Shown: positions 2,777 to 27,113 of the stretch, piece after piece | Layout of the letters: the number at the start of each line of letters is the position of its first letter | How positions within the stretch are numbered: position 1 is the first letter of the stretch | From: a virus | Strand: one strand, 5' to 3' | DNA: 64,000 nucleotides | Virus record (IMG/VR): IMGVR_UViG_2875473743_000002 | Span: 12,292-76,291 of that record | Notes under the pieces: model-generated | Told to the model about the DNA's origin: nothing | Databases searched by the model: none | Seen by the model: only the letters and a program-made list of their open reading frames with translations | Made by a program: the position numbers and the translations under genes

Positions 2777-3532
2777 ATGAGCATTAGAGACATTTTGAAA
2801 GAGCGCGAAGAAGAACGTGATAAGGCGGCTAACGGCGAAAGCGAATTCCCGGAGGGCGTTACGCGTTATGTCCGCGTCGGAAGTCGCGGGGAGATCAACA
2901 AAGAAGGACGTACGTTGGTTATGCTTGCGCCGTACGATGAGTGGTACGTCTATTTCGTACATGAAAACAGAGAATACACCGGAAAGGGCTACGATCATAA
3001 ATTCCGAAAGCATACGTGCTTGCACTCCCCTCGTAGTACCGTCAGCGTTGACGAGTTAAAAAAATACTTCCAGCCAGGAAAAAATGAGTGCATTTCGTGC
3101 AAAGCGGGAGCAAAACGAAAAATGTTCTTTATGATACCGGTGTACGATCCGACATACAAAACTTATCGCGTTATAGACATTGCGGAATTCCACGCAAACA
3201 GTTTAATGGATGATTTTGATAAAGCGGAGAAGCCGGTCAAGAAAATCAAGTCGGATTATACACTCGTAGGTCAAGCGGTGCATTTTAAGCAGTCCGACAA
3301 GACCTATTCGTTAGAAACTGGAGATCTACCTGGCGATGTTCTTGAAGAAGCAAAAGCGTTTATCGGCATCGACTACAAATACGAAGAACTCGCTAACTTC
3401 CGCGATGAAGAAGACATCGTTAAGATTCTTCACGAAGCGAAAGAGGGCGTCAAGAAAGCCGTTCTGCCACCATTAGCGGAATCTAATAACGAAAAATCTA
3501 ACGAAATCAGTGACGATGATCTGCCGTTTTAA
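2777..3532 (+). CDS. Single-stranded DNA-binding protein, T4 gp32-like
   Basis: H...C...CxxC putative Zn ligands (HEN, HTCLH, CISCK); acidic tail EISDDDLPF. Confidence 0.7.
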   Translation: MSIRDILKEREEERDKAANGESEFPEGVTRYVRVGSRGEINKEGRTLVMLAPYDEWYVYFVHENREYTGKGYDHKFRKHTCLHSPRSTVSVDELKKYFQPGKNECISCKAGAKRKMFFMIPVYDPTYKTYRVIDIAEFHANSLMDDFDKAEKPVKKIKSDYTLVGQAVHFKQSDKTYSLETGDLPGDVLEEAKAFIGIDYKYEELANFRDEEDIVKILHEAKEGVKKAVLPPLAESNNEKSNEISDDDLPF

Positions 3533-3555
3533 TAAAACGAAGGGGGGACGATTGA

Positions 3556-3990
3556 ATGGCGCATCTAACCGAAGTTGTCGGAAAATACTCGGAGGTTGTC
3601 GCAGAGTTGGCGCTGTTAGCGAATGGGTACGCAGTATCGCGCCCCCAACTCGCGCAGCCTTACGATTTCAAGGCGGAAGACCCGCTGAATGGTCGCGAAT
3701 ATAAAGTCCAGGTCAAGACGTTTCGACGTAGGCCTGACCGCAAAAATGAACTCGTTCTATACGCAACGAACGGAAAAGGCGAGCCCTACGATCGGTCCGA
3801 CGTTGATTATTTTATCGGCGTATTGGGTGATCCGGGGGAAATGCCTCGCGTTTGGATGTTTGAAAACGAAGGAAATCAGCGCGAATATTGGGCGAAATCG
3901 ACTAATCGTGCGAGCAAGCGGTGGGTAGAACTGCCGCTGTCCCTTAACCGGGAACTTTACGAAGTTAAAAACGAAGCGGAGGCGGTATGA
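3556..3990 (+). CDS. PD-(D/E)XK endonuclease (free-standing)
   Basis: SEVVAELAL...PYDF...VQVKT motif pattern. Confidence 0.7.
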   Translation: MAHLTEVVGKYSEVVAELALLANGYAVSRPQLAQPYDFKAEDPLNGREYKVQVKTFRRRPDRKNELVLYATNGKGEPYDRSDVDYFIGVLGDPGEMPRVWMFENEGNQREYWAKSTNRASKRWVELPLSLNRELYEVKNEAEAV

Positions 3991-4027
3991 TGGCGAAACA
4001 TTTATTAGGTTACATTGTAGGCAAGGG

Positions 4028-4291
4028 GTGGATTTAGTGAAATCGTATCTAATAAAAGTGAACGGTTCTTATTATGCAGGAGAACATGAAGATACAACGC
4101 CTACCCCTCGACCAAGTGATGGTTGGTGCACCAGCAGAGGAGAATCAAATGTCATATTCTTCATGACGGATAGAGGAGAAGCAAAAATTTGTGAGGGTTT
4201 GACTAACTTAAATAGCCATTGGCAACGAATATATAACGCTATGAGATATGACGGATTAGACGTTAAATCAATTGTAATTGAGGAGGTTTAG
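4028..4291 (+). CDS. Hypothetical protein
   Basis: ORF in an AT-richer segment. Confidence 0.6.
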   Translation: MDLVKSYLIKVNGSYYAGEHEDTTPTPRPSDGWCTSRGESNVIFFMTDRGEAKICEGLTNLNSHWQRIYNAMRYDGLDVKSIVIEEV

Positions 4292-4430
4292 TAAAAGGTG
4301 ATTACACATATCACTATCACTTAGATTATTGGAATTATTTCAACGTTTCGGAATTTCCGAATAGTCCAGAGTGGGATGGTCATAAGCCAGAAGATATAAC
4401 TCGTTTATTAACTTTGGTAGGTGAAAAATG

Positions 4431-4586: not shown

Positions 4587-4627
4587 TATTACATTCCAGA
4601 AATAAACACCATAAGCCACACTGATAG

Positions 4628-4780
4628 TTCACCAATGCTTATACAGAGAGTGTTAATAACATTATTAAAGCAGTTGAAAAGGAAGGAAAGGGGTACTCAT
4701 TTGACGTGTTAAGAGCAAAGGTTTTATACGGTACAGAAGCAACAATTAAGAAGCCTAAGTACACAGAAGTAGAGGATGCG
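4628..4780 (+). pseudogene. ISL3-family transposase C-terminal remnant fused in frame to a phage ORF
   Basis: Translates FTNAYTESVNNIIKAVEKEGKGYSFDVLRAKVLYG, the ISL3 C-terminal signature; stop at 4625-4627 upstream. Confidence 0.6.
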
Positions 4781-5593
4781 CACGGTAATGCGCTTATTGC
4801 GGGTTCTGTGTTCCGCAAAGTCTCCGCATCCCAGCCGTCAATAGAAGATCGCGTCAGCACAAACGAAAAGGATATAGAGGCATTAAAATCCGACGTTGAT
4901 GCACTAAAAGGCGAACCTGAGGCTGGGTACGTACGGATTGCCAAGAGCGAGGCGAAAGCGGGCGATTTCGTTAAGTTTGACGAAGCTCCGAGCAGATATC
5001 TAACCGCAGGGAAGTATTACGAGATTGAGTTCGTAGATGATTATGGGGATCCGATCATCATAGATGACGACGGATACGATCTTGATACCCATGGAGAAGT
5101 ATTCGAAGTCTACCGTAAAGTTAGCGCCGCCGAGCCGAAGCCTGAACGCCTGAAAGTCGGTGATTATGCGAAGGTGGTCGGTACTGCACGGAACGGCTGC
5201 TGTGACCGAGGGGATATCGTCAAAATTACAGAAGACGATGATTCGGCGGTTCCGTTCAAGCTTGCTTTTGTCAACGGGGAGTATGCCGGATGGGAAGACG
5301 AAAAGTCCCTCGTTCGCGCCACCGACGAAGAGGTTGCCGAAGCTAAACGAAAGCAGGCCGAAGTGAAAGAGTGTAAGAGATGGGCCGCAATCGGACGCGA
5401 GGTTGGCGAGTATAAGGTCGGTGATATTGTTCAGTATTTATATGATGGGGAAATTTGCGAGGTTGTGGCTGTCGGCGAGGACGGTCGCGTAAAAGTCGCT
5501 ACTCAGAACCACGGAAATTGCACAGAAAATCAGTCAAGCATCGAACTAATAGCGCCAGTCGAAGCGCGTTTCGATCGAAAGGGCGACGAGTAA
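4706..5593 (+). CDS. Hypothetical phage protein with repeated KVGD-type modules (probably chimeric 5' end)
   Basis: ORF track; repeats AKAGDFVKF / LKVGDYAKV / YKVGDIVQY. Confidence 0.6.
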   Translation: MLRAKVLYGTEATIKKPKYTEVEDAHGNALIAGSVFRKVSASQPSIEDRVSTNEKDIEALKSDVDALKGEPEAGYVRIAKSEAKAGDFVKFDEAPSRYLTAGKYYEIEFVDDYGDPIIIDDDGYDLDTHGEVFEVYRKVSAAEPKPERLKVGDYAKVVGTARNGCCDRGDIVKITEDDDSAVPFKLAFVNGEYAGWEDEKSLVRATDEEVAEAKRKQAEVKECKRWAAIGREVGEYKVGDIVQYLYDGEICEVVAVGEDGRVKVATQNHGNCTENQSSIELIAPVEARFDRKGDE

Positions 5594-12224: not shown

Positions 12225-13161
12225 TGAATTGGCCCCTTTCGTCAGCAATGGCGATCGAAAACCTCTTTAATTCATGGGAACTCCTCAAAGCGGTAGGGCC
12301 AAAAACTACTAAAGGAGGACGATCATGAGCGAAGCAAGACGACCGCATAACAAATTGGATATCGATGAGGATTTTATTCGCGAGAATTACTACAAAATGA
12401 GCGCTAGAGAAATCGGTGAGGTGTTAGGGGTTTCAAGAGAAGCAATAAATCATCGGGTGATGAAGATGGGGCTGCGGAAGACGAAAATACCCTTCGTTCT
12501 GGAAGATGGAGAAGAGTTGGTTCCTATAGAGGGTTTTCCTGATTACGGAATCACCAACCATAGTCGAGTTGTTAATTTGAGACGTATGACTTTGGTCAAA
12601 ACAAAGAAAGATCGAGAAGGGTACGTCAAAGTAACTCTCTACAGAGACGGTAAAGCTGTTGGCAGACGGGTTCACCGTTTAGTAGCTCTTCACTTTATAC
12701 CCAACCCGAACAAGCTACCGCAAGTAAATCATATTGACGGGGATAAGTCAAACCCTAGCATCGATAATCTGGAGTGGGTGACACCAAAGGAGAATGCTCA
12801 GCACGCCTCAAAACACGGGTTGCTTTGCGTCGGTGAAAGTCATCCGTCTTCCAAAATCACCGAACAACAAGCGCGATCTATATTGCAAGAGTATCAAAAC
12901 GGTAAGAGCATTTCGGAAATACGAAAAGCTCACTTATACGCGAGTAAATCGATAGTCGAGAAGATCTGTTGGCGGCATAGATGGAAACATCTCGATAAAA
13001 CGTCTTGAACGTGCAACGACTAGGCGAAAGCCGTAGGCTGCAAGCGATTGGCAGTCGAAACAGGAGGCGCCCCACGCGGGCGAAGATATAGTCTAATCTT
13101 CGTGGTAACACGGAGCAGCCGAAAGGCGGGGCGTGCGAAGCGAACACGTCCGAATGGTCTG
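12225..13161 (+). ncRNA. Group I self-splicing intron in nrdE (937 nt)
   Basis: Exon 1 ends in T, intron ends in G; R element CAACGACTAG (13014-13023) and S element AAGATATAGTCT (13083-13094); splicing restores ADQMG|QRQGAGAAY. Confidence 0.92.
12325..13008 (+). CDS. Intron-encoded NUMOD4-HNH homing endonuclease
   Basis: PIEGFPDYGITN, VHRLVALHF, VNHIDGDKSNP..NLEW; N- and C-terminal HTH-like segments. Confidence 0.9.
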   Translation: MSEARRPHNKLDIDEDFIRENYYKMSAREIGEVLGVSREAINHRVMKMGLRKTKIPFVLEDGEELVPIEGFPDYGITNHSRVVNLRRMTLVKTKKDREGYVKVTLYRDGKAVGRRVHRLVALHFIPNPNKLPQVNHIDGDKSNPSIDNLEWVTPKENAQHASKHGLLCVGESHPSSKITEQQARSILQEYQNGKSISEIRKAHLYASKSIVEKICWRHRWKHLDKTS

Positions 13162-21365: not shown

Positions 21366-22166
21366 TTGAAAAGATTACGAGTAGTAAACGCAGAGACAGG
21401 CGAGGACCTATCAACAGACTATACGCTCAGACACCGGAACCAGGACGAAGCTTTCCGGGAACAGCAGAAACAGACAACGGACAGACGCGACTTTTCCAAC
21501 GCCAATATGTCTTATATTCACGAAGTCTATGACGCTCTCACAACGGCACAATGCGGGTATTTGATGTTGCTACAATGCTACGTCGACTATAACGGTGTTC
21601 TCGTTAAATCTAGCCGCGATAAAACTCCGATGAAGACAGCGGATATGATGTCCGTTCTACAGCTCACGAAAAAGCGTATGACATTCTACGATTTTCTGAA
21701 CGCGTGTATTCAGCACGATATTATCCGGGAAGAAGGCGGCATATACTCGGTGAACGAGCGCTACCACTTCAAAGGTAACTTCGGTAGTCAGTACGTTGTC
21801 AAACTCTATACTGCGAAAATTAAGAAGGTATACAGCGAAGTGAAGGCGGCAGACATCGGCCTGATCTATCGGATGCTACCGTTTGTACACTACGAAACTA
21901 ATGCGCTTTGCGAAAATCCTTTCGAGAAGAATCCGAAGCATATACGGTGGTTCAATAAGAAAGAGCTTGCGGTAGCGATCGGAGTAACGCCAGATACGCT
22001 TGGCCGCCGACTGAAGCAGATGAAATTCGACGGAGAGTTCGTTGTCGCGCGAATAAAGGTCGGCAGCGAACCGGAACGATATACGTTTAATCCTAACGTG
22101 TTTTATCGTCAGTCAAAGGCGCCGGATAAGACGCTACTTGCGATGTTTAACGTTAATAAGCCGTAG
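21366..22166 (+). CDS. Replication-initiator-like (RepL/wHTH) protein
   Basis: Two wHTH-like segments, each ending in a Y/F-x-x-N motif (YSVNERY, YTFNPNVF). Confidence 0.5.
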   Translation: MKRLRVVNAETGEDLSTDYTLRHRNQDEAFREQQKQTTDRRDFSNANMSYIHEVYDALTTAQCGYLMLLQCYVDYNGVLVKSSRDKTPMKTADMMSVLQLTKKRMTFYDFLNACIQHDIIREEGGIYSVNERYHFKGNFGSQYVVKLYTAKIKKVYSEVKAADIGLIYRMLPFVHYETNALCENPFEKNPKHIRWFNKKELAVAIGVTPDTLGRRLKQMKFDGEFVVARIKVGSEPERYTFNPNVFYRQSKAPDKTLLAMFNVNKP

Positions 22167-22199
22167 ATGAACGAAAAAAAGCGCCTTAGACTGGCGCCT

Positions 22200-22532
22200 C
22201 TATCTCGTCTTAAATCCGTTCACAAAGCTCTCTCCGTCTTTCTCCGTGTTAATAAGCTGCTGGGCGCTTTGGCTGATTCGTTGAGCAAGCGCCTCTTGCG
22301 CTTTTCCTTCGAAGCTGTAGAGAAGCGATGAATAAACGCTGTTCATTTCTTTTTGTATATCGCCTATTTTAAACTTCGGTCTTAGTGTCGTTTTAATGCC
22401 TTCAAGCTTAGTTGCGGCCGTTACTCTCATGCCCGTTTTCAGCATTTGAAGCTGGTTGCGCCGTATGAAGAGGGTATCTTCTTGATCTCCGTTTAAGTTG
22501 TTGAGTGAAGCCAGTTTGTTGAAATTTTCCAT
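22200..22532 (-). CDS. WXG100-like small helical protein (type VII secretion partner)
   Basis: 110 aa, helical, central FEG-AQEA motif; directly downstream of the lipase. Confidence 0.6.
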   Translation of the reverse strand: MENFNKLASLNNLNGDQEDTLFIRRNQLQMLKTGMRVTAATKLEGIKTTLRPKFKIGDIQKEMNSVYSSLLYSFEGKAQEALAQRISQSAQQLINTEKDGESFVNGFKTR

Positions 22533-22543
22533 TGTTTCATCTC

Positions 22544-23983
22544 CTAAAGTTTAAGCCAATTTGCCAGCATTTTATCTTTCGATTTAAAATCTTTTGCAAT
22601 CTGCGCCAGGTACCCGCTGATGTCTTCTAAATCTGAAATCGTATTTTTTAATGAGGCGATGTACGCTTTTTCGGCATGAACATCGTAAAATAGCGGATTG
22701 CCTTTTTTGTCAAACGACTGCGCCAGGTTTTTCAGCGTATTGTTTACATCCTCGAGTGTCAGCTTGTCGTATAAACCGTGGCCGACCTGACGGTAGGTAT
22801 CGTGCTTCAGGTCGTTGATCTCGGCGTCGTGTTCCTGATAAGCGTTTTCGGCTTCCCGTTTCATCGTCCGCAAGTCATCGATGATCGCATTTACTTTTTG
22901 CGCGAGCTGCTTGGCAACTTCGGGTGTTACTTTAATTGCGCCACTTCCGGAGGCAACTTCCGGTGGGAGCATCGCTTTTAAATTTTTGTCATAAACGAGT
23001 TCATCGCCCTCTATATTTTGAACGTTGCCGTTTTCGTCGAAAGAGAAATTCGACTTATTTATCCCATGTGTATCCGGATTTTGAAAGATTAGTGTATTAG
23101 CGAAATACAGAAGGTTTCTTCCAACCTGTTGGAGTTTATTGCCGTCAAGTCTTTCTTCGCGATTAGCCGTTGCAATAGAAGGGTCTTTTGTGTAGATGGT
23201 AGTCCCATTGTGGCGATCGAATTCGTCCCACCAACCGGCACCGACCATATCATCCGGATTAATGATAGATTTTACATAAGAGTTATAATCTCCGTTATTA
23301 ATTTCTTTCTGTTTTTCATCAGAATGCAGGTGAACGATTGAGGGGCTATTAAACGCGACGGCATAGATATCATTGTTGACCGCGCTGTATTCAGCCTCTG
23401 CGCCGCCGAGCGAGTGTCCGGTGGTTGAAATAACTGTCGAGGTGCCTTTATACTTTTGTTTAACTTCCCGCACAAGTTGATCGGCTTGATCGATTTGCGA
23501 TGTTTTTGTAATTAATTTATAATCTCCGGACTCAAGCATGGCAGTTTGTTCCATCGAACCAATATATCTACCGAACGTCTTAGACATATCTTTCGCATCT
23601 TTCTTGACGACATATTGTGTTTTATCTTTCGGATCGTTTCCTAAGACGATATGATTAATGTCTGCTTGCTCTACGTCACTTAACGGGTCCTTCCCCGGAT
23701 CAGTTCCCGCAAAAGCTACAACGACGTTTTTGGGGTGGTCGGATTTCACCCACTTGCCGTTTTTATTTTCGGCCTGGGATAGAACGGCCGCATCTAACCC
23801 GGTGTCTTCGTCTGTTTTAATTTTATCAACATACCAGTAGGTGGCTCCGGAAACAGATGAATTTATCCGTATGTACTCTTTGTTTTTTAATTTTTTTCTG
23901 AGATAATCGTAGTTGTAAGAACGTTGGCTTATACGATAATAAGTCTCATCCGTAAGATTGGACTTCTTAATCTTCTTACTCAA
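22544..23983 (-). CDS. Lipase (class 3-like) toxin with C-terminal helical T7SS-type domain
   Basis: VVVAFAGTD, TGHSLGG, AFNSP, DDMVG; C-terminal IKVTPEVAKQLAQKV helical region; start TTG 23983 after GAAGGTG. Confidence 0.8.
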   Translation of the reverse strand: MSKKIKKSNLTDETYYRISQRSYNYDYLRKKLKNKEYIRINSSVSGATYWYVDKIKTDEDTGLDAAVLSQAENKNGKWVKSDHPKNVVVAFAGTDPGKDPLSDVEQADINHIVLGNDPKDKTQYVVKKDAKDMSKTFGRYIGSMEQTAMLESGDYKLITKTSQIDQADQLVREVKQKYKGTSTVISTTGHSLGGAEAEYSAVNNDIYAVAFNSPSIVHLHSDEKQKEINNGDYNSYVKSIINPDDMVGAGWWDEFDRHNGTTIYTKDPSIATANREERLDGNKLQQVGRNLLYFANTLIFQNPDTHGINKSNFSFDENGNVQNIEGDELVYDKNLKAMLPPEVASGSGAIKVTPEVAKQLAQKVNAIIDDLRTMKREAENAYQEHDAEINDLKHDTYRQVGHGLYDKLTLEDVNNTLKNLAQSFDKKGNPLFYDVHAEKAYIASLKNTISDLEDISGYLAQIAKDFKSKDKMLANWLKL

Positions 23984-24040
23984 GATATACAACACCTTCC
24001 GTGTAATGTAAAATAATAATAGGAAAGGAATGAATTTCAT

Positions 24041-24355
24041 TTGAAAAAATACATTATTATCCTACTATTGTTAATTATAGCAGGTGGAGGGTTGTTTATG
24101 AAGCATCAGTATGATGTGAAAAAAGAAGAAACTGTTCTTTTTGAGAAGGCGAAAACTAAGATGACTGAATATCTACATAATGAGTACAAAGGTATTGATA
24201 CTATTACTTATTATGATGATTACTTTATTGATCCAACCGGTGCTATCACCGTTGAAGGATATTTGAACGGTGATAAATCTAAAGAGTTCGACGGTTTATA
24301 TGATCCGGCGAGTGATAAGATAGGAAGCTCGTCTGTAGATGCAGAAGAAAAATAG
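24041..24355 (+). CDS. DUF1433-like membrane-anchored protein (candidate immunity)
   Basis: N-terminal signal/anchor; AKTKMTEYL, IDPTGAITVEGYLNGD pattern. Confidence 0.6.
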   Translation: MKKYIIILLLLIIAGGGLFMKHQYDVKKEETVLFEKAKTKMTEYLHNEYKGIDTITYYDDYFIDPTGAITVEGYLNGDKSKEFDGLYDPASDKIGSSSVDAEEK

Positions 24356-24386
24356 CCCACTCAATCGAGTCGGGCCTTTTTCGTAT

Positions 24387-24560
24387 TTATATACTCTTTT
24401 TCATACCGCAACGTCGACACTCACGTAGGAAAACGCCATCCTTCACCGAACTTTTAAACAGCGTATAGTCGCAGTTATCGCAGCGCCCGTAATGGACGTC
24501 TGGGTACTCTTTATAATCGTATACAATCGTCGTATCATATCCTTTTGTTTCGTAATCCAT
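24387..24560 (-). CDS. Small zinc-ribbon protein (57 aa)
   Basis: CDNC...CRRC; SD GGAGG before ATG 24560. Confidence 0.7.
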   Translation of the reverse strand: MDYETKGYDTTIVYDYKEYPDVHYGRCDNCDYTLFKSSVKDGVFLRECRRCGMKKSI

Positions 24561-24606
24561 TCGTCTCAACCTCCGACTATTAGGATACGACAATAGTACG
24601 GTCAAT

Positions 24607-25416
24607 TCAACGCCATTCATGAAACGAAGGAATCCGCAACAAACCGTTTTTCGTCTTGAACCGGTGCTTGACGCGGCACCCAATTGGCTCGATGTAGGCG
24701 TATTTCTCCGTTTCTTCTACGATTAGCCGCTCCGCATGAAACTTCCGCCGCGCATCATACGGCATAAACTCCATAATGCCGGCATACTGGCCGTCCAGGT
24801 ACGAAAGAAGCAGCGCATTGTCTTCCTTGCGGAGTCCTGATATCAGAACGTCAGTATATTCGTAGTTAACGATCTTCAGCCAGCGATCTGACCGCTTATT
24901 TTCCGCATACGGAGCGTTTGCCTGCTTCATAACGATGCCCTCGATCTTATTTTCGCGGACTAATTCGAAATAATCCGTAGCATGGCCGCGCACGCCCTCG
25001 ACTATTTTAACGTTAGGATGATCGAGTTTTAGACCGGCCAGCAATTCTTTTCGTTCACTTAGCGGCTTAGACGTAACTGAAACGCCATTTGTTCGCAGGA
25101 CATCAAAAACGCAAAATACTATCGGATGAAAATTCTTGCGCGACTGGAATCGTTCCATGGTGGCCTCAAAATCGCCGGCTCCTGTCGGACCAGGTACGAT
25201 AAGCTCGCCGTCTAGTATGGTGCCGTCCGGTATGTCGAGCGTTAATAGTTCCGGAAATTTAGCGGTGACTTCGTTGTTGTGGCGTGTGTAGAGGCGGATT
25301 AAACCGTTATTCCTGGACGCGATCAGACGGATGCCGTCGAATTTGGTTTCCGTGATATAGTCGTCCGAGTTAAACGGCTCCTTTGCGGATTCAAGCAGCA
25401 TGGGCGAAATAAACAA
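24607..25416 (-). CDS. ATP-dependent DNA ligase (SPbeta LigB-like)
   Basis: ETKFDG, ILDGEL, VFDVL, EGIVMK, WLK motifs. Confidence 0.9.
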   Translation of the reverse strand: MFISPMLLESAKEPFNSDDYITETKFDGIRLIASRNNGLIRLYTRHNNEVTAKFPELLTLDIPDGTILDGELIVPGPTGAGDFEATMERFQSRKNFHPIVFCVFDVLRTNGVSVTSKPLSERKELLAGLKLDHPNVKIVEGVRGHATDYFELVRENKIEGIVMKQANAPYAENKRSDRWLKIVNYEYTDVLISGLRKEDNALLLSYLDGQYAGIMEFMPYDARRKFHAERLIVEETEKYAYIEPIGCRVKHRFKTKNGLLRIPSFHEWR

Positions 25417-25511
25417 AAAGAATCACCTCGTTTCAGCGTAGTTACTATAATGATATAGTAAGAGGCCGCCGAGACAAAGTGATCCGGTTCCGGTAAATTA
25501 TTCCTTTAGCT

Positions 25512-25928
25512 CTATTTTATATCATAGAATAGCTCTTCCATTATAATGTTAAATAGCTGAGCAGACTGAATGTTCTCTTTGTCTTGTTGGCTACTTCGTA
25601 CAACCCAGATACTGTCGCTTCCTTTTACTTCAATTTTTACGTATGTATCATCAGGTTGATCTAATCTATTTGCGATAATCTTACTACCTTCGTATTTTAT
25701 ACTTGCTGTTTTTCCATCTAGTATTAATGATATCTCGTTTTCATCTGTTTCAGGGTCAAAACAGACTTTGCTTTCAGATACTTTAGAAATTAAAGCCCTT
25801 TCCATCATCTCTTGGAAGTTAAGCAAATGTCTTTTTATTATTATGAAAACCTTGAATGTGTTAATCTCTATTTGATATTTATTTCGTAAACTTTCAAGCA
25901 GTTGTTTCGACTTTTCGTTGTTTGCCAT
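25512..25928 (-). CDS. Hypothetical protein (AT-rich accessory gene)
   Basis: SD AAGGAGTG; own extended -10 promoter. Confidence 0.7.
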   Translation of the reverse strand: MANNEKSKQLLESLRNKYQIEINTFKVFIIIKRHLLNFQEMMERALISKVSESKVCFDPETDENEISLILDGKTASIKYEGSKIIANRLDQPDDTYVKIEVKGSDSIWVVRSSQQDKENIQSAQLFNIIMEELFYDIK

Positions 25929-26186
25929 TATTAATCACTCCTTTTATATTTTTTGGATTTTCCGAGTTTGAAAAACTGGATTATGTGTCTGACATGGTAC
26001 TCTCTCCTCTCGCAGTCGAATTCCTCATGTGTCCTACTCGTAGTATAGTTATATTATAGCATAATTGCCTTGTTAATCCTTTTTTGTAAACGAAAATTTT
26101 ACCACGGAATTAAAGCGTATGAGCCGCCGGAAAGTATTGCGGGTATATTAGGGTATCGGCGGCCGCTTAACGCCTGATTTCGTGTG

Positions 26187-26507
26187 TTATTCGATAACCT
26201 TAATCGCTTTAAATCTGCTGCCATTTTCGTACTGATCCTTCGTAAAAATCACGCTAATCCGATCGCCTGGCTTTGCGTCCGTGGCTGCCGGATCGAAAGA
26301 GAAGCCGCCGTCGTCCGCTGAAACCGCGTAGTCTTTACCTTCGACAATTTCCTGGGCGTCCTTGGCTTCCGCTGCCATGTCGTCAGCCACGCGATAAGCA
26401 ATATCGACATCTTCGTTTAGTTTGGCGGCGTAGATTCCGAGAGCCGCGTTGCCTGCGATTGATAGGCCGAGGATGGCCGTTAAGAGTTTCGTTTTATTCA
26501 TCGTCAT
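26187..26507 (-). CDS. Hypothetical exported protein
   Basis: N-terminal signal/anchor; SD GGAGGT. Confidence 0.7.
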   Translation of the reverse strand: MTMNKTKLLTAILGLSIAGNAALGIYAAKLNEDVDIAYRVADDMAAEAKDAQEIVEGKDYAVSADDGGFSFDPAATDAKPGDRISVIFTKDQYENGSRFKAIKVIE

Positions 26508-26618
26508 TACCTCCGTATCTGTTTGCGATTAAATAGCCGAGATTGAAGCCGATCTGATACGCTTTGCCGGCGTCAGGGCGTTGATATAGATCGAGAAGTT
26601 GATCGGCCTGCTGCGGTT

Positions 26619-26792
26619 TCAGCGGCGGTGTGACCGATTCCCCCTCGATCTAAAGAATAGAAGCGCGATAAAAACGACAGCCGAGCCGAGACCGACGTAG
26701 TCCAGGACGGAAAGCCGGCCGAAGTTCGTATCCGCAATCCAGGCGAGCAAGACGACGATTAACAAAATTTCCGTGGTATCAATTCGTTCCAT
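26619..26792 (-). CDS. Small two-helix membrane protein (57 aa), YoyJ-like position
   Basis: Manual translation MERIDTTEILLIVVLLAWIAD...FIALLFFRSRGNRSHRR. Confidence 0.6.
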   Translation of the reverse strand: MERIDTTEILLIVVLLAWIADTNFGRLSVLDYVGLGSAVVFIALLFFRSRGNRSHRR

Positions 26793-26810
26793 TCGTGTTA
26801 TAATTGATTG

Positions 26811-26890
26811 ACAAGGGGCGAAATGCCCCTCGGTGTTTATTGTCGGCGACGGTGCTTCTTGGTCGGAGGCCGTCGCTCCTTACTTTCGGC
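26811..26890 (+). ncRNA. Candidate antisense antitoxin RNA (SR6-like); ends approximate
   Basis: Extended -10 TGtTATAAT (26796-26804); hairpins 26814-26830 and 26846-26876; complementary to 3' end of the toxin ORF. Confidence 0.5.
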
Positions 26891-26995
26891 TTTGGACTGA
26901 TCGTCCTTTCGCATCTTCCGGATTTCTAAGACGATTTTTAGAATTCCGAGCCAAGTTGCGACGATTGCCGAAAGTTTCATCACGGTGTCAATCAA
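26837..26995 (-). CDS. YonT-like type I toxin peptide (52 aa)
   Basis: MIDTVMKLSAIVATWLGILKIVLEIRKMRK...KKHRRRQ; SD AAGGAGGTG; promoter TTGACA(27051-27046)-17-TATATT. Confidence 0.65.
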   Translation of the reverse strand: MIDTVMKLSAIVATWLGILKIVLEIRKMRKDDQSKAESKERRPPTKKHRRRQ

Positions 26996-27113
26996 TTACG
27001 TTCACCTCCTTTCGTTACCTTAAATATACGATATCGCATAACGCATGTCAATTGGATTTGCGGAAATTTATTCGTTATCGTATAATCGAATTATCAAAAC
27101 GAGGTGAGTACGG

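Follow-up and report, generated by a model that had tools for sequence, protein, structure and literature searches.

The lipase cassette and its genes

The DNA analysed here is a window of 64,000 nt, corresponding to positions 12,292 to 76,291 of IMG/VR virus record IMGVR_UViG_2875473743_000002, and all coordinates given below refer to this window. It includes a cassette of three genes that predict a lipase with a helical C-terminus, a small helical protein and, on the opposite strand, a short DUF1433 protein. An annotation made from the letters alone (the original prediction) had described this segment as a prophage-borne type VII secretion lipase toxin with reversed domain order, accompanied by a WXG100-like partner and an adjacent immunity gene, and the three open reading frames (ORFs) that it named are all present in the ORF listing of the window, where it had placed them. 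The features of the cassette, with their basis in brackets, are as follows.

22177..22201, minus strand: intrinsic-terminator-like hairpin and T-run (9-pair stem with 5 GC pairs, then a run of T)
22200..22532, minus strand: tla2-like partner gene, 110 amino acids (aa), product predicted all-helical (ORF, alignment motif, AlphaFold2 model, hhalign)
22544..23983, minus strand: tsl2-like gene for a putative reverse lipase toxin, 479 aa, TTG start (Pfam, alignment, model, comparison of starts)
22949..23983, minus strand: N-terminal class-3 lipase (alpha/beta hydrolase) domain, aa 1-345 (alignment, model, Foldseek)
23411-23413, minus strand: Ser191, in GHSLGG
23249-23251, minus strand: Asp245, invariant in 44 members
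23066-23068, minus strand: His306, invariant in 44 members
22547..22936, minus strand: C-terminal helical domain, predicted to serve in targeting, aa 350-479 (model, sub-threshold Pfam matches, colinearity with Staphylococcus xylosus)
23984..24040: divergent intergenic region, 57 bp, between the lipase TTG and the DUF1433 start
24041..24355, plus strand: til2-like DUF1433 immunity candidate, 104 aa (Pfam, homology to S. xylosus, synteny)

All three genes are intact and have ribosome-binding sites. The partner ORF begins 11 nt beyond the lipase stop codon and is the single small helical ORF between the lipase gene and the terminator hairpin, which overlaps the partner stop codon and closes the lipase-partner operon.

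The longest lipase ORF (22544..24040, minus strand) starts at an ATG at 24040 that abuts the DUF1433 start codon, and carries an additional hydrophobic N-terminal extension of 19 aa. The true start is most likely the TTG at 23983, judging from the signals around it and from its relatives. A ribosome-binding-site sequence, GGAAGGTG, is located 9 nt upstream of this TTG, and the database gene calls of 473-479 aa are in keeping with it. In most relatives an ATG occupies the same position, the frames further upstream are unrelated or closed by stop codons, and the extension is not conserved. Because translation would start at 23983, the hydrophobic extension is regarded as an artefact and the lipase as lacking a Sec signal. 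Candidate promoters, identified as consensus matches only, were found on both strands (TTCATA-17-TATAAT with TG at 24102-24074 on the minus strand, and TATACA-17-TAAAAT at 23986-24014 on the plus strand), and these back-to-back elements must overlap both coding starts.

Relationship to the Tsl2 family

The cassette is assigned to the Tsl2 family, as a member of the TslM type, because staphylococcal Tsl2/Tla2/Til2 loci encode homologues of all three of its proteins and have the genes in the same order and orientation. It is not placed with TslA in Tsl1, as TslA has two partners and a DUF576 immunity protein. The likeness to TslA of Staphylococcus aureus drawn in the original prediction therefore stands in so far as both are reverse-order lipase toxins with a helical partner, but the closest system is TslM. 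The S. xylosus locus used for comparison is made up of a DUF1433 gene, a gene for a 504-aa lipase and one for a 99-aa protein. The window lipase is 30% identical to the core of the S. xylosus lipase over 131 aa (BLASTP, E-value 1e-10), its C-terminal domain is colinear with that of S. xylosus Tsl2 (25% over 132 aa, E 0.008), and the DUF1433 proteins share 27% identity over 90 aa (E 2e-7).

The Tsl2 family of S. aureus, described by Higginson et al. (Microlife 2026; PMC13560087), is characterized by an N-terminal phospholipase. [quoted passage not shown] The secreted toxin is neutralised in a cognate-specific manner by TilM, a divergently encoded DUF1433 membrane protein. Shorter Tsl2 homologues are found in Bacillus and Listeria, and a paralogue, TslP, is carried on SaPI (S. 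aureus pathogenicity island) mobile elements (PMC13560087). The window cassette shares with TslM-TlaM-TilM an N-terminal GXSXG lipase with Ser-Asp-His residues, a C-terminal helical domain of the T7SS targeting kind, a single gene for a small helical partner directly downstream, and a divergent DUF1433 gene whose product has an N-terminal membrane anchor, in the same gene order and orientation as tilM-tslM-tlaM. Differences were also seen. The lipase lacks the long disordered linker and has 479 aa compared with 536 for TslM, and the DUF1433 protein is 104 aa long, against 149 aa for TilM, its match to the Pfam model being confined to the first half. At its turn the partner carries F-E-G, and it falls below the Pfam WXG100 threshold; a turn motif of the LFG type was not found. 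Rather than a genomic island or SaPI, a complete temperate siphophage is the carrier, and the module is known here from sequence.

TslA acts as a toxin only when it is outside the cell, as is presumed of the window lipase (Garrett et al., Nat Commun 2023, for TslA; PMC10730906). With TslA-TlaA1/TlaA2-TilA the window cassette has in common a lipase of reverse domain order and a helical partner, with which it would be exported. Unlike TslA, which has two partners and immunity conferred by a DUF576 lipoprotein, it has one partner and a DUF1433 membrane protein. The partners of TslA are also without a clear F/YxxxD/E motif, whereas here such a motif is found at the C-terminus of the toxin itself.

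The lipase domain

The N-terminal lipase with a GHSLGG motif that had been proposed was recovered. The ORF matches Pfam Lipase_3 at 23.7 bits (cut-off 22), and GHSLGG occupies aa 189-194 of the 479-aa form (window 23402-23419). In an alignment of 44 diverse members, with identities down to ∼22%, the catalytic residues Ser191, Asp245 and His306 are invariant, as are Gly189 and His190. The AlphaFold2 model built on this alignment, for a protein that differs from the window protein at a single linker residue (S345F), has a mean predicted local distance difference test (pLDDT) score of 86.9 and a predicted template modelling (pTM) score of 0.71, with most of the lipase domain above 90. It consists of an alpha/beta-hydrolase domain to about residue 345, a short low-confidence linker and a helical C-terminus.

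In Foldseek the N-terminal domain matched class-3 lipases with probability 1.00, among them those of M37 and Rhizomucor miehei, Yarrowia Lip2 and plant phospholipase A1 (PLA1), and type VI secretion lipases, which include the toxin TseL, were matched at this probability as well; Serratia PLA1 was another match. Yarrowia Lip2 is likewise cited in the TslM paper (PMC13560087). Searches of the lipase sequence against PDB sequences gave only weak matches to plant PLA1. Membership of the NCBIfam family SA1320_fam was considered and rejected, as the score is 40.8 bits against a cut-off of 230 and only the lipase core is shared. Among AFDB Swiss-Prot entries, the alignment of YvcB of B. subtilis (O06966, 636 aa) with the lipase model spans residues 2-474, and YvcB/SA1320-type proteins may represent another lipase-plus-helical-tail architecture and be candidate reverse T7SS substrates.

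The C-terminal domain and the small partner

The helical region expected behind the lipase, in reversed order, is predicted at aa 354-476 as two long helices (354-399 and 435-476), modelled at pLDDT of about 86-91 and joined by a small folded insert. The domain begins with I-K-V-T-P-E, an opening of the type that is typical of WXG100/LXG proteins, and a weak match to NCBIfam WXG100_ESAT6 is located there. When the C-terminal domains of 40 members were scanned singly, the most frequent Pfam matches were WXG100 (14/40) and T7SS EspC (10/40), all of them below threshold. The lipase has no Pfam match to the LXG polymorphic toxin family (PF04740), and its domain order is the reverse of that in N-terminal LXG toxins.

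Near the end of the domain, D470 is invariant; 33 members have Phe and 4 have Tyr at position 466, and the window protein has F466-x-x-x-D470 (22574-22588, minus strand). An F/YxxxD/E sequence is present within the last 30 aa of 41 of the 44 members, in the same alignment column, and the pattern extends to the staphylococcal relatives; about 0.2 per sequence would be expected by chance, which is our rough estimate from typical residue frequencies rather than a computed value. A C-terminal F/YxxxD/E motif is a requirement for T7SS targeting and is normally carried by the Lap or Esx partner (PMC10730906, PMC13560087).

The 110-aa partner is modelled as three helices (2-50, 56-71 and 77-105; pLDDT 79), and F74-E75-G76 (window 22305-22313) is in the loop between the second and third. 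Its earlier description as WXG100-like holds only for the predicted helical hairpin, the F-E-G turn and the homology to staphylococcal TlaM-like proteins, and the protein is below the Pfam WXG100 threshold. This homology was seen in a comparison of profiles, in which the partner matched the staphylococcal 99-aa TlaM-like profile with a probability of 81.6% (hhalign, E 1.1e-5, 82 columns). Some of these staphylococcal 99-aa proteins are annotated as WXG100 family T7SS targets, and the homologue from Staphylococcus pettenkoferi scores 16.5 bits for WXG100 (cut-off 27.3). Homologues of the window partner itself are limited to the B. subtilis group, have no protein names and share an invariant Y-S-F-x-G-K-A-Q block, and an h-x-G-x-A/T pattern is found at the equivalent place where a small ORF follows a related lipase gene in other genera. 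The partner belongs to phrog_38349 (E 6e-47) in PHROGs, where no family was found for the lipase or for the DUF1433 protein. A wide VIA-align search with the partner model returned generic helical matches (Z <8), and its profile matched only designed helical bundles among PDB sequences.

In EsxA/EsxB, which are helical hairpins, the WXG turn of one chain and the C-terminal YxxxD/E of the other make up a composite export signal. The corresponding elements here would be F-x-G at the turn of the partner and FxxxD at the tail of the lipase. The difference is that neither protein reaches the Pfam WXG100 threshold and that the larger chain has an enzyme fused in front of its hairpin.

The DUF1433 immunity candidate

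An adjacent membrane-anchored DUF1433-like gene had also been proposed, and the product of 24041..24355 indeed reaches the Pfam DUF1433 cut-off (31.2 bits, cut-off 30.8) and has a hydrophobic N-terminal anchor. The transmembrane segment is predicted at about aa 4-20 (window 24050-24100) and is followed by a short domain predicted to be extracellular. In all loci examined the DUF1433 gene is divergent from and adjacent to the lipase gene. Among sampled Bacilli genomes with DUF1433, it adjoins and is divergent from a lipase gene in 12 of 17, often in rafts of 2-7 copies.

Variation in the neighbourhood of the lipase was observed in other Bacilli. Two loci (L040 and L041, from genomes G279 and G242) have rafts of four and seven DUF1433 genes upstream of the lipase, and in many of the proteins a lipoprotein-type signal peptide, containing a Cys lipobox, takes the place of the plain membrane anchor. 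A lipoprotein form of Til2-type immunity may exist. Sampled genomes of 6.4-7.6 Mb (such as G097, G233 and G362) have strong full-length lipase-family matches, often 2-4 per genome, and a single TAA interrupts several of these. DUF1433 was not detected near the lipase-family genes of these genomes, and this branch probably uses a different immunity protein.

Association with the host secretion system

As the original prediction had it, the cassette comes without secretion machinery; neither EssC nor a Pfam WXG100 gene was found in the provirus. Intact EssC/YukB is present in genomes of the host species (5/5, >1780 bits, cut-off 778), with YukE about 2.6 kb away. Co-occurrence was assessed in 401 evenly sampled Bacilli genomes, and a strong lipase-family match is present in 33 of them. 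EssC was found in 30 of these 33 compared with 58 of the 368 others (odds ratio 53, Fisher p 6e-19, ignoring phylogeny). We infer that the module depends on the host Yuk/Yue system, to which the EssC comparison points, and that it would serve contact-dependent killing and protect the lysogen.

Prophage-borne substrates of this system have been described. YokI (SPβ), YobL and YqcG of B. subtilis are LXG toxins of prophages or phage elements that are delivered by the YukE/Yuk T7SSb of the host in competition between strains (Kobayashi, PLoS Genet 2021; PMC8321402). The window cassette is similar in being a putative toxin-immunity pair on a prophage or phage-derived element. YokI, YobL and YqcG differ in that their N-terminal domain is a canonical LXG, the toxins at the C-terminus are nucleases or deaminases and the antitoxins are cytoplasmic, and their operons do not include a dedicated WXG100-like partner such as the one found here.

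The stretch is represented in 14 RNA-labelled public runs, four of which were examined as assembled contigs, in which contig depth cannot rank genes. Contigs of 29-138 kb span silent phage genes, so that DNA carry-over is likely. Contigs over the partner gene and the 3′ two-thirds of the lipase gene (22051-23465) break at about 23442-23465, and the depth over ∼22.0-23.5 kb is about 3-4 times that of neighbouring sequence in three of the four runs. As this region is the part conserved among paralogous prophage copies, the raised depth probably reflects copy number and is consistent with collapsed paralogous copies of a conserved targeting module. In run X6 the contig depth of the minus-strand block is above that of the late genes.

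The phage carrier and its cargo slot

The prophage location called from the sequence holds. The record is a 77.8-kb IMG/VR provirus, rated 100% complete by CheckV, with a tyrosine integrase at the left end, and PHROGs matches identify a DNA polymerase, ribonucleotide reductase, sigma factor, large terminase, portal, major head protein, tape measure and endolysin. By its gene content, the carrier is a complete temperate siphophage. The cassette is in a minus-strand block between regulatory genes (a sigma factor and phrog_9501) and a helix-turn-helix gene that precedes the packaging module; its lipase-partner operon is transcribed against the lytic direction and is outside the lysis module.

The slot, 22167-27113, contains the lipase cassette, an ATP-dependent DNA ligase gene (24607-25416) and small ORFs for unknown and membrane proteins. 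At the corresponding position, the related B. subtilis phage phi18-2 (L045, 5409-7060) carries a DUF2786 gene and unknown ORFs, and the presence of different genes at the same site indicates a variable cargo slot. Elsewhere, prophages have the cassette beside their endolysin gene or at their edge. A B. tequilensis locus (L026, 5705-8151) has genes for a reverse transcriptase and a PRTase-CE protein, resembling a retron/DRT-like (DRT, defence-associated reverse transcriptase) pair, directly upstream of the cassette, which suggests a conflict-system island.

Distribution and modular variation

The three-gene arrangement was found again in 18 IMG/VR provirus loci and in 15 loci of Bacillus genomes, and with this recurrence it is not a chance juxtaposition. 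The carriers are B. glycinifermentans, B. paralicheniformis, B. haynesii, B. sonorensis, B. tequilensis and B. stercoris, often with several copies per genome. Among the licheniformis-group copies the lipase heads are 60-74% identical and the targeting domains 88-100%. Across loci, divergence of the head is correlated with that of the DUF1433 protein (Spearman 0.61) and divergence of the tail with that of the partner (0.87), and head and tail are uncorrelated with each other (-0.04). This pattern fits polymorphic-toxin logic with recombination within the lipase gene.

Incomplete forms were also found. The partner gene is deleted or truncated in seven loci (L004, L005, L007, L010, L013, L025 and L032), the partner-less relatives have a different terminator directly 3′ of the lipase gene, and the lipase gene of L015 is frameshifted. 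In S. pettenkoferi (L043, 3064-6001) the tsl2-like lipase is split into three ORFs (4602-4916, 4198-4425 and 3374-4030) and accompanied by an intact gene for the 99-aa partner, and four DUF1433 genes form a raft around it. No EssC match at E<=1e-100 was obtained for this genome, and the locus has the look of an immunity raft left orphaned by the decay of its toxin.

A tblastn search of 50,697 GenBank phage records with the lipase found only two Listeria 'phage' records, both flagged UNVERIFIED_ORG. They were rejected as examples of phage carriage because the neighbouring genes (threonine-aldolase-like, McrB-like and GmrSD) look chromosomal. One of them, OR846725.1 ('Listeria phage LM 4-11-1'; L046, 2510-4601), contains a DUF1433 gene (70.9 bits), a gene for a 385-aa lipase and a small ORF, and looks like host chromosome rather than phage.

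Proposed function and alternatives

We interpret the cassette as a Tsl2-family 'reverse' type VIIb substrate module carried by a prophage of Bacillus (licheniformis group), and put the probability of this interpretation, with the mechanism that follows, at about three in four. The 479-aa protein would be a Ser-Asp-His phospholipase-type toxin with no Sec signal. Its C-terminal two-helix domain is expected to form a helical bundle with the co-transcribed 110-aa partner, in which F466xxxD470 of the toxin and the F-E-G turn of the partner would together provide an EsxA/EsxB-like composite signal, read by the YukB/EssC ATPase of the host. Once exported, the lipase may attack membrane phospholipids of neighbours that lack the matching immunity protein, and the lysogen would be protected by the membrane-anchored DUF1433 protein, the outer domain of which is predicted to block the cognate lipase head. 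The phage would thus supply the genes for substrate, helper and immunity, and the host the Yuk/Yue machine. Partner binding, T7SS-dependent export, lipase activity, toxicity and immunity are all putative properties in this scheme.

Several observations weigh against it. The DUF1433 match is marginal and covers the first 52 of the 88 model positions. A conserved LXG/LFG-type turn was not found, with no conserved L-x-G column in the alignment of 40 members across the inter-helix region, which aligns poorly. The partner has no Pfam WXG100 (PF06013) match at E up to 1, and its top Foldseek matches, mostly Esx proteins (B. anthracis EsxB, CFP-10/ESAT-6 and S. aureus EsxA), are non-significant (E >=0.4). 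Three of the 33 sampled genomes with a lipase-family match have no EssC match. The partner gene is absent or truncated, with the lipase intact, in about a quarter of related loci, so that the partner may be dispensable or supplied in trans, or these copies may be decaying. The pattern of co-divergence could arise from physical linkage alone or from shared ancestry. Finally, the RNA-labelled contigs give no conclusion on transcription, and expression of the cassette in the lysogen is presumed.

One alternative is that the lipase serves the phage or acts inside the cell, either as an accessory esterase for lysis or entry or as part of a toxin-antitoxin pair that acts in abortive infection or stabilises the prophage, the DUF1433 membrane protein then restraining a membrane-damaging enzyme. 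The cassette is, after all, phage-encoded, and one database name for the lipase is 'phage hydrolase protein'. Its position next to endolysin or at the prophage end elsewhere, the defence-island-like setting beside the reverse transcriptase and PRTase-CE genes in B. tequilensis, and the existence of partner-less copies would all suit such a role. However, here it runs against the lytic direction and outside the lysis module, and the same three-gene module is found, with immunity rafts, outside phages in loci of staphylococci and Listeria. The T7SS-type features of the C-terminal domain and the strong co-occurrence with EssC also argue for export, and TslM, the characterised homologue, does no harm when the T7SS does not export it. 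With the DUF1433 domain predicted to be extracellular as well, we consider an intracellular or phage role improbable.

A second possibility is that the cassette is eroding, hitch-hiking cargo, non-functional in many prophages and kept mainly for the immunity gene. Loss of the toxin gene with retention of the immunity gene is often seen (PMC13560087), and the frameshifted lipase of L015, the seven loci with a lost or truncated partner, and the S. pettenkoferi lipase in three pieces within a DUF1433 raft, in a genome with no EssC match, would all fit such a history. The window copy, in contrast, has three intact genes with ribosome-binding sites, the 11-nt junction and a terminator. Its catalytic and motif residues are conserved and the targeting domain is 88-100% identical among licheniformis-group copies, and erosion is thus an unlikely account. 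That the lipase is a Sec-dependent, signal-anchored exolipase translated from ATG 24040, with a helical C-terminus used, for example, in oligomerisation or cell-wall binding, is suggested by the hydrophobic 19-aa N-terminus of the longest ORF but is very improbable, since this ATG leaves no intergenic space before the DUF1433 start, the good ribosome-binding site is at TTG 23983, where relatives have their ATG and upstream of which their frames are unrelated or closed, and gene calls are 473-479 aa.

Within the preferred interpretation, a Tsl2 substrate module exported by the host T7SSb, a more specific and tentative reading can be put forward, which taken as a whole we regard as possible but doubtful. 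Tsl2-type toxins may carry the F/YxxxD element themselves, the partner giving only the WXG-like turn of a two-part signal in the style of EsxA/EsxB. The targeting domain and partner could then act as a platform shared on Bacillus prophages, onto which lipase heads and DUF1433 genes are swapped by recombination within the lipase gene, and partner-less cassettes could be exported with partners from co-resident prophages. If this were so, a lysogen with several prophages would build an assortable arsenal.

Implications

Both the Tsl2 family (PMC13560087) and prophage-borne toxins that use the host Yuk T7SS (PMC8321402) have already been published, and as both the family and this concept were in place the gain made here is incremental. 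The modest new elements are the C-terminal F/YxxxD motif borne by the toxin, the apparent swapping on phages of toxin/immunity against targeting/partner modules, and the partner-less variants.

The assignment extends the Tsl2 reverse-lipase family to complete temperate phages of Bacillus, and indicates that a phage can carry genes for a substrate, its helper and its immunity protein as a single cargo module reliant on the T7SSb of the host. Such modules would offer a route for the horizontal spread of interbacterial weapons among soil and industrial Bacillus. The near-universal F/YxxxD at the C-terminus of the toxins and the natural variants with no partner are leads for the study of T7SS targeting, and swapping at the level of domains would make these loci a natural panel of toxin-immunity specificities.

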